The notes under the pieces were generated by a model that was not told the DNA's origin, did no database searches, and saw nothing but the letters and a program-made list of their open reading frames with translations. Position numbers and translations under genes: made by a program. From NCBI GenBank assembly GCA_965660855.1, contig CBFIBM010000005.1, positions 33,466 through 97,465 on the forward strand: a stretch of DNA of 64,000 nt, given 5' to 3'. Below, piece after piece: positions 7,935 through 44,114 of the stretch. This DNA is from an uncultured bacterium (GTDB taxonomy: Bacteria > Fidelibacterota > Marinisomatia > Marinisomatales > UBA1611). How positions within the stretch are numbered: the stretch's first letter is position 1; every line of letters begins with the position of its first letter.

Positions 7935-8819
7935 ATGTCTATATACATTACTAGGGACAAATTAATATTCCAAATATTGCTACTTATTGGAATGTTAACC
8001 TGGGGACTATCATGGACTAATGGTAAAGTTTTAGGCAATTATGATAATGTTAATGTCATAATTTCTTGGAGATTCTTTTTTGCATTTATAGCATTTTTGC
8101 CTTTTCTTATTTCGAGTGAACACCCATTAATTCCACCTAAAAAAAGTATTCCATTTATATTATTAAATTCAATTTTTATTATATCTTATAATTTATTCTA
8201 TTTTTCAGGTACCAAAATTGGTTATGCATCGACTGGAGGTATTTTGGTTACTACATTGAATCCAATTCTAACTGCAATTTTTACAAGGATAATATTTAAA
8301 ACTTATATAAAAAATACAGATTTAATTGGTTTAGGTATAGGCCTCGTTGGGAGTTGTATTTTAATTAAAATATGGTCACTCGATATAGATTTAATGCTAA
8401 AAACAGGTAATCTATTTTTCATATTTGCTTCTTTTTCTTGGGTTTGTGTTACAATAATTACGGCATTCTCGAAAGATTATATACACTTCATACCTTATAC
8501 CTTTTGGAGCTTTTTTTCTGGATTTATATTTTCACTACTATTTTCTATTGATGAAGATTTATTTATTATTTACAGTTTTGATTATATTTTTTGGATTAAC
8601 TTTATATTAATTTCTGTAGGAGCTATGGCATTTGGTCAAGGTATTTATTTCAAAGCAACATCAACTTTAGGGCCTAAAAAGGCGAGTTCTTATATATTAA
8701 TTGTACCAATAGCTGCTGCTTTTTTTGCAATCTTAATTTTAGGAGAATCTATTGATATCTTTGTAATCTGTGGAGGGATTTTAAGCATTGTTGCGGTATT
8801 CATTTTAAATAATTATTAA
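7935..8819 (+). CDS. DMT/EamA family transporter
   Basis: About 10 hydrophobic segments in two EamA repeats, WG motif near the N-terminus, C-terminal LILGE. The true start may be slightly downstream. Confidence 0.85.
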   Translation: MSIYITRDKLIFQILLLIGMLTWGLSWTNGKVLGNYDNVNVIISWRFFFAFIAFLPFLISSEHPLIPPKKSIPFILLNSIFIISYNLFYFSGTKIGYASTGGILVTTLNPILTAIFTRIIFKTYIKNTDLIGLGIGLVGSCILIKIWSLDIDLMLKTGNLFFIFASFSWVCVTIITAFSKDYIHFIPYTFWSFFSGFIFSLLFSIDEDLFIIYSFDYIFWINFILISVGAMAFGQGIYFKATSTLGPKKASSYILIVPIAAAFFAILILGESIDIFVICGGILSIVAVFILNNY

Positions 8820-8829
8820 ACAGTATTAT

Positions 8830-9861
8830 TTATATCTCTTTTTTAATTTTTTCTAACTGTTTTAAATAGTATTTATCATCTGGTTTAAATTTTATACATT
8901 TTTTTATTTCATTAAGTGCCAGATTATACTTTTTAAGCTTATATAAAATCTCAGCTTTTGTATCTATAAACATATATTTTTGTTTTTCATCTTCCACTTT
9001 TAAAATAGCATAATTTATTTTTTCTAATGCTATATCTAATTTTATTTCTAGTTCACTCATCCTCCAAGAGAAACTATTTAACATACGTAATGAAACATTA
9101 TCATCATATTCAATTAACTTTAAAAAAATATCAGCTTCAAGCTTTTCTAATCCTCCCTTCTTACGAATAAAATACATAGCCTCTGAAAGAGCTGTTTGAA
9201 TATTAGGACTTTCTGGATTTTCATCAACATATGTCAAAAGAAGATTATAATCTTGATTTTCTCTAGCATCATATAAATAGGAAAAAAATTCTGCAATACC
9301 GGATGAATCAACGTTTTCAACTAAAATAGCATCAATCATTTGTTTTGCAGATATAAAATCACCTTTTTCTTCATATTTTCTAGCTAATGTGAACATGGTA
9401 TTAAAGCTACGTGGATCTAATTGAAACTTATTTAGTAAAGATTTTATAGTATTCTTTCCTCCTTTAATTCGCTTGAGTTGTTTTAAAAAATCAGGTGCTT
9501 TTTTGTAACCAACAATCCTATCTATTTCTGTTCCTTTATTATTTGTTATTACAACAGTAGGATAACCACGTATATTGTATCGCTTTGCGATTTCAGGACC
9601 ATTCCCGCTCTCTGCATCAACCTTAATACTAATTAGATTATTGAAAGCATATTTTATTACATTATTATCACCAAATGTATCGGCATCCAGCCGGTCACAC
9701 CAAGTTCACCAATCAGTCTCAAAGTCAATTAAAATTAATTTATCTGTTTCGATATTAAAGATTTGATTCAGATCTTCGTAAGGATACCAAGGATATTCAA
9801 TTTTTTTACTACAATTACTAATTAAAAAAAAAGTAAAAAAGGAAAGAATAATCTTATTCAT
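8830..9861 (-). CDS. Probable selenoprotein: lipoprotein thioredoxin-fold protein (UxxC, Sec52) fused to a TPR-like helical domain, 343 aa
   Basis: Manual translation from ATG 9861 gives MNKIILSFFTFFLISNC...KLILIDFETDW-[TGA 9708-9706]-TWCDRLDADTF...KVDAE...RYNIRGYPTVVI...GTEIDRIVGY, continuing in frame with no other stop into the listed ORF 8830..9396. The start overlaps the upstream stop (ATGAATAA). Confidence 0.88.
9670..9705 (-). promoter_or_regulatory. Putative bacterial SECIS element directly 3' of the in-frame UGA
   Basis: mRNA reads UGA ACUUGG UGU GAC CGGC UGGAU GCCG AU ACA UUUGGU: a CGGC/GCCG upper stem, a 5-nt apical loop with G at position 2 starting 16 nt after UGA, and a UGU/ACA lower stem. 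It is built from GC-rich codons (CGG CTG GAT GCC) unusual in this AT-rich DNA. Confidence 0.75.
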
Positions 9862-10267
9862 TATTAAAATGTGAATTTATTTTATTCAAAACTAATTTAG
9901 GTGCTCTAGTTGGTTTGCCATTTTTTTTCATAAATGCATGCCAGGTATACCCTTTTACAATTATCTCATTTGTACTATTTACTTTAATGATATAATTGAT
10001 CTTTAATTTAGAAACTGGGATTTCATTGATTTGCGATATTATAACTAATTTATCTTCAAACTTAGCACTTGAAATATATTCACAATGTGCAAGAATCACC
10101 GGTAATGTTATTCCACTCTCTTCAATATCTGTGACTGTTAAACCTTTATTTTTTAACAGTTCCGTTCTTGCTTGTTCAAAAAATTCAAAATATCTAGAAT
10201 AATAAACAATACCCATTTGATCAATATCTTTGTAATAAACCCTACAATAAAAATGATGTTCAATCAT
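9854..10267 (-). CDS. Acyl-CoA thioesterase, YbgC/FadM (4HBT) family
   Basis: RVYYKDIDQMGIVYYSRYFEFFEQARTE hotdog-fold motif. Confidence 0.9.
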   Translation of the reverse strand: MIEHHFYCRVYYKDIDQMGIVYYSRYFEFFEQARTELLKNKGLTVTDIEESGITLPVILAHCEYISSAKFEDKLVIISQINEIPVSKLKINYIIKVNSTNEIIVKGYTWHAFMKKNGKPTRAPKLVLNKINSHFNNE

Positions 10268-11214
10268 TATACTTCTTCAAAAAATCCTAGTTTATCGTAT
10301 TTAGAAATACGATTTTGAAGAAAATCACTTTTATCTAGATTAGATAATTGTTCTAACTCTTCTATCAAAACTCTTTTTAAGGAATCACAGGATGCTTTAA
10401 AATCACGATGAGCTCCACCATTTGGTTCCTCTATAATCCTATCACATATTCCAAGCTCTAGGAGATCTTCAGGTGTAGGTTTTAGAGCTTCTGCTGCATC
10501 CTCAGCACGTTTTGCATCTCTAAAAAGGATAGAGGCACAACCTTCTGGGCTGATAACTGAGTACCATGTATTTTCCATCATCAACATTCTATCGCAAATA
10601 CCTATTCCTAACGCACCTCCACTAGCACCTTCACCAATTACAACTGAAATAATTGGTACTTCAATACCTGACATTTCAATTAAATTATTCGCAATTGCCT
10701 CTCCTTGCCCTCTTTCTTCAGCTCCTAAACCAGGATAAGCTCCAATTGTATCTAGAAAGGATATAATAGGCAGATTAAATTTTTCCGCAATTTTCATGAT
10801 TCTTATTGCCTTCCGGTACCCTTCTGGACGCATCATTCCAAAGTTCCTATACAAATTTTCCTTAGTATTACGTCCCTTCTGCTGCCCAATCCAGGCAATT
10901 TTTTGCCCACTAAAATGCCCAATACCAGCTATGACAGCAGGGTCATCCCTGAAATGTCTATCTCCATGTAATTCAATAAAGTCGCTTGAAAATATATCAA
11001 TATAATCTTTTGAATATGGACGATTTGGATGTCTTGCTAGTTGAACTCTTTGCCATCTTGATAATTTAGAATATATATTTTTAATCAAATCGGTTCTTTT
11101 ATTATATAGTTGATTTAAAATATTCTGATCAGGATTTTGAAGACTCTCCATCTCAAGAATTTCTATATCAATCTGTTCAAATGGTTTTTCAAATTCTAAA
11201 TAATATTTTGACAT
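10267..11214 (-). CDS. accA: Acetyl-CoA carboxylase carboxyltransferase alpha subunit
   Basis: WQRVQLARHPNRP, ELHGDR, NFGMMRPEGYRKA, GAEERGQGEAIA, YSVISPEGCASIL. Confidence 0.97.
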   Translation of the reverse strand: MSKYYLEFEKPFEQIDIEILEMESLQNPDQNILNQLYNKRTDLIKNIYSKLSRWQRVQLARHPNRPYSKDYIDIFSSDFIELHGDRHFRDDPAVIAGIGHFSGQKIAWIGQQKGRNTKENLYRNFGMMRPEGYRKAIRIMKIAEKFNLPIISFLDTIGAYPGLGAEERGQGEAIANNLIEMSGIEVPIISVVIGEGASGGALGIGICDRMLMMENTWYSVISPEGCASILFRDAKRAEDAAEALKPTPEDLLELGICDRIIEEPNGGAHRDFKASCDSLKRVLIEELEQLSNLDKSDFLQNRISKYDKLGFFEEV

Positions 11215-41790: not shown

Positions 41791-43377
41791 TTAATCTGCC
41801 TGAAATAATTCTTTAATAATCTTCATACGGTCAGCATCATTTATATATTTATAATTTACAAAAGTATTCTTATTCTGAATATATTTTTCAATATGTAAAT
41901 GATGATCAGCTTTGAGAGCAATCTGGGGTAAATGAGAAATACAAATTACTTGTTTGTTTTTTGACAATTGCAATAAGTGCGATGCCACTTTGGATGCAGA
42001 TTTACCTGAAATACCTGAATCTATTTCATCAAAGACAAGTGTTTCTGCTGGATCTATATTTTCAAAAACCGTTTTAATGGCAAGCATGACTCTTGATATT
42101 TCACCCCCTGAAGCAATAAGAGACAGAGGTTTCAGAGGCTCACCTGGATTTGTAGTGAAATAGAATTCAACATTATCAATACCTTTATTATTATGAGAAT
42201 ACTTATTACCATCATAATTAACAAAATTATCATTTTTTATATAGTTTGTAATCTTAATTTCAAACTGAGCATTTTGCATATTCAAACTTTTCATTACATT
42301 TGCAATTTTTATTGAAAGCTCTGATCCAATTTTTTTTCTAGTTCTATGTAATTCAATAGCAATTTGACTAAATTTCTTTTCCAATTCAAAAATTTTATTT
42401 CTTATTTTTTCTTTTTGTTTTTCTGGATTTTTAAAATCTTTTAATTCTTGTTGAATTTCAGCTCTTTTGATAGAAATACATTCTAGTGATCCTCCATACT
42501 TTCTTTTTAATGTTTCAATTGCGCTTAGCCTTTCTTCGATTATATGAACCTCATGAGCATCAAAATCTAAGTTTGACAGCTGATCATTTATTTCATTTTG
42601 TGCTTCTTGAATATTAATAATAGATTGATCAATCAGTGTTAAAATTATATTGATACTTTTATCATACTTTTCTATTGATGCTATTTTATTCTTCATATAT
42701 TCAACTTGAGGAAGAATAGATTCATTTTTTTCAGAAATGGCATAATTAGAATCTTGAAGAGTTTCAATAATCTCTTTTAAATGGGTAAGTTTTTTATATT
42801 TTTCATGAAGATCGATATCTTCATTTTCTAAAATATTTAATGAATCAATTTCATTGGCTTGGAAGTTTAATAATTCTAGTTTTTCTTTTAATTCTGTGGT
42901 GCTTTTTACAATATTAATTAAACTGTCATTAAGATGCTGTAATTCTTTGAAAATATTTTTCAAAAAATCAACTTTGTTTTCATGACCACAATACTCATCT
43001 AAATATTCTATATGTTTAATTGGATCTAAAATTATTTGCTGATCATTTTGACCATGAAATTCAATTTTAACTAATTTATGATTCTTCAGACTATTAAGAG
43101 TTATCAATTCACCATTAAAAAATGATTTCGTTTTACCATTTTTTAATATTATTCTTTCAAAATTTAAATTATTAAAATTTGTATTGATGGTTGCTTTTTC
43201 CTCTCCATTTCTGACCATGATTTTATCTGCTTTAAATCCTAAGGAGGCTCTTAACGCATCTAGAATTAGAGTTTTACCTGATCCTGTCTCACCAGTGATA
43301 ACAGTAAGTCCTTTTTTAAATGGTATATTAAGATCTTTTATAATTGCAAAATTATTTATTGTCAGGCTTTGTATCAT
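41791..43377 (-). CDS. recN: DNA repair protein RecN
   Basis: TGETGSGKT, HGQ, ASGGEISR, FDEIDSGISG, QVICISHLPQIA. Confidence 0.95.
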   Translation of the reverse strand: MIQSLTINNFAIIKDLNIPFKKGLTVITGETGSGKTLILDALRASLGFKADKIMVRNGEEKATINTNFNNLNFERIILKNGKTKSFFNGELITLNSLKNHKLVKIEFHGQNDQQIILDPIKHIEYLDEYCGHENKVDFLKNIFKELQHLNDSLINIVKSTTELKEKLELLNFQANEIDSLNILENEDIDLHEKYKKLTHLKEIIETLQDSNYAISEKNESILPQVEYMKNKIASIEKYDKSINIILTLIDQSIINIQEAQNEINDQLSNLDFDAHEVHIIEERLSAIETLKRKYGGSLECISIKRAEIQQELKDFKNPEKQKEKIRNKIFELEKKFSQIAIELHRTRKKIGSELSIKIANVMKSLNMQNAQFEIKITNYIKNDNFVNYDGNKYSHNNKGIDNVEFYFTTNPGEPLKPLSLIASGGEISRVMLAIKTVFENIDPAETLVFDEIDSGISGKSASKVASHLLQLSKNKQVICISHLPQIALKADHHLHIEKYIQNKNTFVNYKYINDADRMKIIKELFQAD

Positions 43378-43721
43378 TTTTTTGATAGAGAGAAAGATTT
43401 AAAAGAAAATGAAATAAAACATATACCCAAAAAATCTGCAATAACATCATATATACTTGAATCTCTACCAGGAATGAAAGATTGCCAGAGTTCATCAAAA
43501 ATACCAAAAGTCAAACCAAATATTAGGGTGAAAAGATAAGTAGATTTAAAAAGTTTAAGTTTTGTTCTTAAACAAATGAAACCTAAAAATGAATATTCAA
43601 TAAAATGAATAACTTTATCAAATCCAAAATTTAATTTTCCAGGTACTGAATCACCTGGGATACTAGAAATCAAAATAATAAATAATGAAAAAAGGAAAAG
43701 ATGTAATCTTCTACTATTCAT
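43374..43721 (-). CDS. VanZ family membrane protein
   Basis: DKVIHFIEY, DELWQSFIPGRDSSIYDVIAD. Confidence 0.88.
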   Translation of the reverse strand: MNSRRLHLFLFSLFIILISSIPGDSVPGKLNFGFDKVIHFIEYSFLGFICLRTKLKLFKSTYLFTLIFGLTFGIFDELWQSFIPGRDSSIYDVIADFLGICFISFSFKSFSLSKK

Positions 43722-43730
43722 AAATAGATA

Positions 43731-44114
43731 TCAATCTAAAGTATAAATTGAAAACGCAGTAGCGTATTTTCTAATATGGGAGATAGAGACTTTAAAATTC
43801 CCTTTATGTTCAAAATGTATTTTGACTAGCGGTGCACCATCTCTTGAGTTAATTATCTCAATCATGTTTAAAGGTATAGAGTTTTTATATCCTGATGATT
43901 TTAAAGCTTTAATGATAGATTCTTTTGCAGCAAATCTTCCCGCAAAATGTATAGAAGGATTGTCAAATTGATTGCAATATTCTTGTTCTTTTAAAGTATA
44001 AATTTTATCAAGGAAACGTTTTCCATTTTTAATAAGAGAAGATCTTATTCGACCAACTTCAATAATGTCTGTTCCTATGAATGTATTATCCAAACGTAGA
44101 ATTATGCTCATCAA
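43731..44114 (-). CDS. acpS: Holo-ACP synthase (start may be TTG 44093)
   Basis: GTDIIE, FAGRFAAKESIIKAL, GAP, SISH. Confidence 0.93.
   Translation of the reverse strand: MMSIILRLDNTFIGTDIIEVGRIRSSLIKNGKRFLDKIYTLKEQEYCNQFDNPSIHFAGRFAAKESIIKALKSSGYKNSIPLNMIEIINSRDGAPLVKIHFEHKGNFKVSISHIRKYATAFSIYTLD

Follow-up and report, generated by a model that had tools for sequence, protein, structure and literature searches.

A Marinimicrobia gene that very probably encodes a selenocysteine-containing thioredoxin-tetratricopeptide repeat protein, a putative lipoprotein, with its own insertion hairpin

In a 64-kb stretch of contig CBFIBM010000005.1 (the window; G+C 29.7%), we find a minus-strand gene that very probably encodes a selenocysteine (Sec)-containing protein, putatively a lipoprotein, with a thioredoxin-fold domain followed by a tetratricopeptide repeat (TPR)-like domain, and that carries its own selenocysteine insertion sequence (SECIS). 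The coding sequence (8830..9861, minus strand; ATG at 9861-9859, TAA at 8832-8830) has 343 codons, a length that recurs among the orthologues of the 75 loci compared below, and its sole interruption is a TGA at 9708-9706, which is codon 52. Under translation table 11, the frame is cut into two open reading frames (ORFs) of 51 aa (9706-9861) and 188 aa (8830-9396). An earlier reading made from the sequence alone (the sequence-only reading) had described the 188-aa ORF as the C-terminal part of a frame that runs 155 codons further upstream with one TGA, placed where the first Cys of a thioredoxin WCxxC motif belongs. Both statements hold: 343 minus 188 is 155, and the translation reads MNKIILSFFTFFLISNC... 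LIDFETDW-U-TWCDRLDADT ... GYPT ... EIDRIVGY, in which the GYPT and EIDRIVGY elements are intact, as had also been said. Read as Sec, the UGA (9706..9708, minus strand) would be residue 52 and the start of a U-T-W-C redox motif, an assignment that draws on the aligned codons of orthologues and on contigs from DNA and RNA libraries; the resolving Cys55 (9697..9699, minus strand) is invariant in 49 sequences. The first 8 nt of the gene are shared with the end of the upstream ORF at 9854-10267 (ATGAATAA), the overlap of ATG and upstream stop that the sequence-only reading had noticed.

A first homologue search of 41 related genomes gives 14 full-length orthologues, with TGA in ten and TGT or TGC in four at the aligned first position of CxxC. 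When the search is extended to the phylum, matches at E<=1e-20 turn up in 153 of 401 genomes (85 of 190 among the genomes at least 90% complete); the site is covered in 142 of the listed rows, and by a hand count about 116 of these have exactly one TGA. The phylum search returned 30 loci, of which 9 overlap the first search. The 14 loci of the first search, the 21 further ones, and 40 hand-picked loci, taken from both kinds of rows to reach distant families, make up a set of 75. We left out L069 (a duplicate of L020), L031 (a C-terminal fragment at a contig end), and L033 from genome G022 (a fragment with two TGA and one TAA). Codon 52 is TGA in 55 of the 75 orthologous loci and TGT or TGC in the other 20, a ratio biased by the 40 loci that were picked with the stop column visible. 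The supposition that homologues would have either Cys or TGA at residue 52 is thus borne out. The columns invariant in the 49 sequences are U/C52, C55, P101, E112, R115, G118, T138, N262, W266, D300 and T301. A search among named genomes found four loci, including one true orthologue, which comes from Candidatus Neomarinimicrobiota (Marinimicrobia/SAR406).

The genome that contains the window is a Marinimicrobia/SAR406 assembly of 2.09 Mb in 81 contigs, 84% complete. The machinery on which the sequence-only reading depended is complete in it. A profile search finds, all over their curated cut-offs, selA (494 bits) with an adjoining selB (303 bits), selD (389 bits), which has one in-frame TGA of its own, and a tRNA-Sec (63 bits), which ARAGORN reports as tRNA-SeC with anticodon TCA. 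A genome-wide script lists 1197 raw in-frame TGA sites, 62 of which pass a filter for hairpin and context, and from these we chose eight genes by eye (L114-L121; C1:123926-124759, C1:258098-259231, C1:261761-262645, C5:19656-20849, C6:59449-59946, C15:4401-4769, C17:11443-11898 and C19:7406-8443). They include SelD and two ResA/redoxin-like WUxxC proteins, together with a match to the Omp28-related selenoprotein family (562 bits; cut-off 200), a match to ArsC (116 bits; cut-off 106), two PrxQ/BCP peroxiredoxins with a TPGU motif, and a UshA-like PCGU protein (211 bits; cut-off 275). Each of the eight has a single TGA, located at the redox motif, and most have a signal peptide. This organism makes regular use of Sec, for the most part in redox proteins that are exported.

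For the hairpin, positions are counted from the U of the UGA as 1. In the window RNA, RNAfold gives a 36-nt hairpin within the coding sequence (9670..9705, minus strand; -12.7 kcal/mol), at nt 6-41 when the count includes the GG preceding the UGA. Its core helix and loop occupy 9679-9695 (nt 14-30), and the apical loop U20-G21-G22-A23-U24 is at 9685-9689. The CGGC-UGGAU-GCCG hairpin that had been proposed to follow the UGA is found here, 16-28 nt from its U. The single-sequence fold is unexceptional, so it is the comparative evidence that counts. In 41 Sec orthologues (40 of them distinct), 87.5% of the cells of helix 14-19/25-30 are paired, and for the inner four pairs the figure is 159 of 160. 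Changes on both sides occur in all six pairs among the Sec forms (18:26, for instance, appears as G-C, A-U, U-A and G-U), counts that overstate independence since they come from related sequences. As controls, 500 column shuffles all fall short of the observed values, and windows slid along the alignment are 15-54% paired. Loop residues T20-G21-G22-A23 are invariant in Sec forms of this common type. We tried a longer helix, 8-19/25-37, which is 78% paired with much mispairing in the lower stem, and we take just its upper 6 bp as conserved. Over the columns of helix 14-19/25-30, pairing in the 20 Cys forms is 45%. Where helix passes into loop, Leu is encoded by CUG in 40 of the 41 Sec forms and in 7 of the 20 Cys forms, from which we conclude that synonymous sites are constrained only where a UGA needs decoding. 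Conserved in Sec forms and absent from Cys forms, the hairpin is, by this comparative measure, under selection in Sec forms. As a separate observation, one Cys form (L112:342-386, plus strand, genome G273, with TGC; CGGCTGGATGCCG) has five consecutive pairs of the Sec-type hairpin. It is the only one of the 20 Cys forms to keep them, and its hairpin looks like the relic of a recent replacement of Sec by Cys.

An Rfam scan of 9400-9900 at E<=10 finds no SECIS family, only three matches at chance level. The hairpin resembles the SECIS of Escherichia coli fdhF in lying within the coding sequence just 3' of the UGA, with loop Gs about 20 nt away. It differs in having a shorter conserved helix (4-6 bp) and the loop UGGAU at +20-24, whereas the fdhF element has G23/U24 and a bulged U17. 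We propose that SelB and tRNA-Sec would decode UGA52 guided by this hairpin within the coding sequence, helix 14-19/25-30 with loop UGGAU.

The common helix is missing from a distant clade of 14 Sec forms, which instead has a helix 21-25/30-34 with loop AGUU, 100% paired and with two covarying pairs; an alternative register, 17-22/28-33, is nearly as good at 94% paired. This clade (L073-L086, from 14 genomes of families f28 and f32) has its SECIS shifted 3', encoded by (R/Q)L(D/N)QLV and not by RLDA(D/E). Within the genome of the window, selD (L121/L008) has a 4-bp helix 16-19/25-28 with loop CGGGU, and the two redoxin genes (L114 and L116) have the same helix 16-19/25-28 with loop AGGCU. As these hairpins are alike, the one at 9670-9705 fits a local consensus NGGNU at +20 to +24.

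The protein starts with a signal peptide (9811..9861, minus strand) that has a lipobox-like end, MNKIILSFFTFFLISN-C17. In the structure model residues 2-15 of this leader are a helix, and its hydrophobic character and Cys17 are kept in at least 90% of 49 homologues. In most homologues the leader ends in [LFIV]x[GSA]C, and in a few it has no Cys. Of the LISNC lipobox named in the sequence-only reading, the conserved Cys stands, and the Asn at -1 is atypical. Next comes the thioredoxin-fold domain (residues ~25-135; 9457..9789, minus strand), DsbD-gamma/DsbH-like according to Pfam, NCBIfam and Foldseek. Pfam families over their cut-offs are Thioredoxin_2 (1.2e-12), Thioredoxin, Thioredox_DsbH and Thioredoxin_7. 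The best NCBIfam matches are to the DsbD-gamma-like ends of TsoB and DsbD, far under the cut-offs (TsoB, the top match, has 68 bits against 805), and no curated NCBIfam model would name or rescue this protein. An AlphaFold model built with 49 homologues (mean predicted local distance difference test score 95.3; predicted template modelling score 0.83) has a strand at 42-48, U52 heading a helix at 53-62, and then 12 helices between 139 and 342. The features of a thioredoxin fold are present: UxxC at the N-terminus of helix 1, a cis-Pro (the invariant Pro101, codon 9559-9561, minus strand), and a beta-alpha-beta core. Foldseek matches the first domain to DsbD-gamma (2fwg/1uc7; template modelling score 0.72, 26% identity), to DsbH and to thioredoxins. 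DsbD gamma and DsbH (2ju5), both extracytoplasmic CxxC modules, are the best structural matches; compared to DsbD, this protein has no alpha or transmembrane domain, has Sec in place of the first Cys, and is fused to a TPR domain. The second domain (residues 139-342; 8836..9447, minus strand) is all-helical and TPR-like, with 12 helices and the invariant N262, W266, D300 and T301. The Pfam TPR families score below cut-off (18-20 bits against 25-27), and Foldseek matches the domain to consensus-TPR (CTPR) and OGT TPR superhelices. The sequence-only proposal of a lipoprotein thioredoxin fused to a TPR domain is supported, for the two domains by the structure model and for the lipoprotein-type leader by the homologues.

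The product would have a lipoprotein-type signal peptide, a DsbD-gamma-like domain (U52-T-W-C55, cis-Pro101) and a TPR solenoid. Tentatively, and at slightly under an even chance, we propose an envelope-anchored thiol/selenol-disulfide reductase or isomerase that is fed by DsbD and holds its client with the TPR domain. The selenolate would attack disulfides (or sulfenic acids) of a substrate, Cys55 would resolve the selenenylsulfide, and the three-domain DsbD of the genome would re-reduce the enzyme, with the client protein held in the TPR groove. A complete DsbD is encoded in the genome at L113:925-2877 (plus strand), with DsbD_N, DsbD_TM and Thioredoxin_7 corresponding to the alpha, membrane and gamma domains.

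An alternative that accepts the read-through, and that we regard as possible but rather doubtful, is that the protein is an oxidant or a redox-controlled, CnoX-like holdase in the envelope. Its architecture has the same order of thioredoxin and TPR as E. coli YbbN/CnoX (3qou, 3qdn), which are high-ranking Foldseek matches, and DsbA, DsbB and VKOR were not found in the 84%-complete genome, so an oxidative catalyst would otherwise be missing. Yet the global superposition on YbbN is poor (root-mean-square deviation 21 Å, with a different domain orientation), no sequence family match was found, and the likeness is one of architecture only. The protein of the window also differs in having a signal peptide and UxxC, where CnoX is cytoplasmic and has SxxC. 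Moreover, DsbD is present, the genome is incomplete, and selenenylsulfides are more reducing than disulfides, a chemistry that makes a UxxC protein a poor net oxidant.

Turning from the role of the protein to the decoding of its UGA, it is very improbable that the UGA mostly terminates translation, giving a 51-residue leader peptide and a separately initiated TPR protein with marginal Sec insertion. Internal ATGs do exist, gene callers find ORFs from 188 to ~280 aa here, and to our knowledge bacterial Sec insertion is never fully efficient. Against this, such a split would break up the thioredoxin fold right where its active site lies; P101, E112, R115 and G118, downstream of the UGA in the same domain, are invariant; the Cys orthologues are single full-length proteins; and the SECIS is under selection.

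The TGA itself recurs in further assemblies. Contigs from two DNA runs of different studies cover 8700-10300 with zero differences, where either run may itself be a source of this assembly, and contigs from two RNA-library runs span an unchanged TGA (9144-9863 and 9633-9783). The call to look for the TGA in reads is so far answered by its presence in contigs of independent DNA runs and of RNA libraries. A side observation comes from an RNA-library contig of depth 2, which has G>A at 9690 (plus strand), that is, C19 to U in the RNA. The change is synonymous (CUG to UUG), turns the loop-closing C19:G25 pair into U:G, and may be a strain variant or an error. That the TGA is a nonsense mutation in a pseudogene, or an assembly or sequencing error, has a negligible probability: a single in-frame stop does look like a fresh pseudogene and public calls truncate the gene, but 55 independently assembled genomes share the TGA at this codon, these additional DNA and RNA-library contigs have it as well, the frame runs unbroken before and after it, and a hairpin is co-conserved in TGA forms only. 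We give equally little weight to the idea that the organism or the gene reads TGA as tryptophan or glycine (code 4 or 25): three database proteins (P0003-P0005) carry W at the site (D-W-W-T-W-C) and the G+C content is low at 29.7%, but only one gene in the window needs read-through, the 20 orthologues without TGA all have Cys and never Trp or Gly, the codon is that of a catalytic CxxC residue, and a tRNA-Sec with anticodon UCA is present along with selA, selB and selD. In addition, TGA ends 8 of the 49 window ORFs of at least 120 aa and is therefore an ordinary stop here.

A quick maximum-likelihood tree of 75 proteins, for which the Sec/Cys column was masked, calls for at least 11 changes between the two states, six of which are forced by well-supported branches. 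The Cys forms are small tip groups among Sec forms. Taken with the relic hairpin of L112, this placement suggests that the family in Marinimicrobia had Sec first, and that Cys may have taken its place repeatedly.

To return to the Sec-containing lipoprotein with its own SECIS, several points count against it or against parts of it. Decoding of UGA codon 52 as Sec is strongly supported, and that support is of a sequence-based kind. Taken alone, the hairpin falls short of significance (z -1.31, with folds as good in 19 of 200 shuffles), and the selD hairpin is likewise weak alone (z +1.31). The covariation counts come from related sequences and the 75 loci are not a random sample, as noted where those numbers are given. 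The RNA-library contigs may hold DNA, and they demonstrate the presence of the TGA and not proven transcription. Asn at -1 of the leader occurs in the window protein and in one other lineage. The tree is unrooted, for which reason the direction from Sec to Cys is not proven, and with a genome only 84% complete the absence of DsbA, DsbB and VKOR is not proven either. Finally, the reductase or isomerase role, the dependence on DsbD and the binding of clients by the TPR domain are what we infer from the domains and the genome content.

The gene directly upstream, whose end overlaps the start codon, encodes a 4HBT-type thioesterase according to Pfam (9854..10267, minus strand) and is preceded by accA, the alpha subunit of the acetyl-CoA carboxylase carboxyltransferase (10267..11214, minus strand; Pfam ACCA, 2.2e-133). 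Going upstream on the same strand, the order is the 4HBT thioesterase, accA, one family-4 and two family-2 glycosyltransferases, RmlD and DUF4837. Downstream of the gene lies an EamA transporter gene in convergent orientation. The thioesterase lies directly upstream in 21 of the 34 orthologous loci that have flanks, and usually an ORF of ~318 aa precedes it in the place of accA (Pfam was applied to one such locus, L021). Most of the orthologous loci compared, from several families of the window's own order, have the arrangement accA, 4HBT thioesterase, thioredoxin-TPR gene. Other lineages have unrelated neighbours, and glycosyltransferases are seen upstream in this window only. The thioesterase gene is a probable operon partner; as the RNA-library contigs do not bridge 9864-9947, they are silent on co-transcription with it. 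The sequence-only reading had the gene co-transcribed with envelope biogenesis genes, which is too strong: same-strand partners do exist, but the conserved ones are the thioesterase and accA, with unrelated genes in other lineages, and the link to envelope biogenesis is therefore weak. We see no evident functional tie of an exported redox protein to an acyl-CoA thioesterase of the cytoplasm. In one lineage, a MauE/DoxX-family membrane protein is encoded beside the gene (L056:633-1106, L065:2766-3239). Proteins of this family are elsewhere linked to disulfide chemistry, and by analogy this one may serve as another redox partner.

When the entire window is scanned for in-frame TGAs flanked by coding potential, two candidates come up, 9706-9708 and 43731-43733. 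We reject the latter as a second Sec site, as it is an ordinary stop between two genes. In the region 43374-44114 (minus strand), a 127-aa ORF stops at the TGA (43733-43731), beyond which the same frame has another 118 codons free of stops. The membrane-protein gene past the TGA has its own ATG four codons downstream. From the translation, we take the two genes to be acpS (holo-ACP synthase) followed by a VanZ-like gene.

The selenoprotein family itself is already known. The domain family cd02953 is, we presume, the DsbD-gamma family. Zhang and Gladyshev (2008; PMC2398784) list cd02953 with a UxxC motif and 22 Sec sequences in Table 2 of their selenoproteome of the Global Ocean Sampling (GOS) data. 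A motif search of Dataset S1 finds WUTWCDRLD seven times. By eye, with no alignment score, 14 of the 22 sequences labelled '#Trx-like 2' are orthologues of the window protein. They share D[FY]xTxxUxxC.RL[DE] and EIDR[IL][IV]GY, and where long enough they have the NS[FY][AG]WRM.E helical domain; one of them is, again by eye, almost letter-identical to the orthologue of genome G014. The likeness is in the same place of UxxC in a DsbD-gamma-like thioredoxin domain. The published family is heterogeneous, as the other 8 of the 22 are different thioredoxin-like proteins. Neither TPR nor tetratricopeptide occurs in the main texts of this paper and of the selenoprotein review we searched, and neither SAR406 nor Marinisomatota occurs in the review; the GOS paper was not searched for taxon names. 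In the portions covered of a further article, PMC8318568, Marinimicrobia are mentioned only among reconstructed genomes. As far as these searches of partial texts go, neither the GOS paper nor the review discusses the fusion of the two domains, the taxon, the existence of two SECIS types or the Sec/Cys dynamics.

The expectation that automated annotation would truncate the gene is matched by the public calls, which hold fragments. Among the 63 database relatives at E<=1e-10, some Sec forms are post-UGA fragments (188 aa, 202 aa in an NCBI record, or 267-285 aa), and others are full length with W at the UGA (DWWTWC), as in P0003-P0005 with 343-344 residues. The W apparently comes from code 4 calls chosen for short contigs of low G+C. 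The public Cys forms have their full length. These sources offer no names other than 'tetratricopeptide (TPR) repeat protein' and 'thioredoxin-related protein'.

This is, then, a real gene missed by standard gene calling, through truncation or through insertion of Trp, and its annotation should be corrected. SAR406 genomes have a rich and largely exported selenoproteome. The family opens no long-standing question and its biological value is modest; what it does offer, for comparison or experiment, is a large number of natural Sec/Cys pairs along with two types of SECIS. A broader view, which we consider unlikely, is that the protein is an envelope 'chaperedoxin', ancestrally Sec-containing and phylum-wide in Marinimicrobia, a lipid-anchored TPR clamp with a DsbD-fed selenolate that could replace machinery of the DsbA/DsbC type, which was not found in this genome. 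If this were true, one gene would record two SECIS architectures and at least six to eleven switches between Sec and Cys, and it would be a natural system for what Sec buys over Cys in the envelope.

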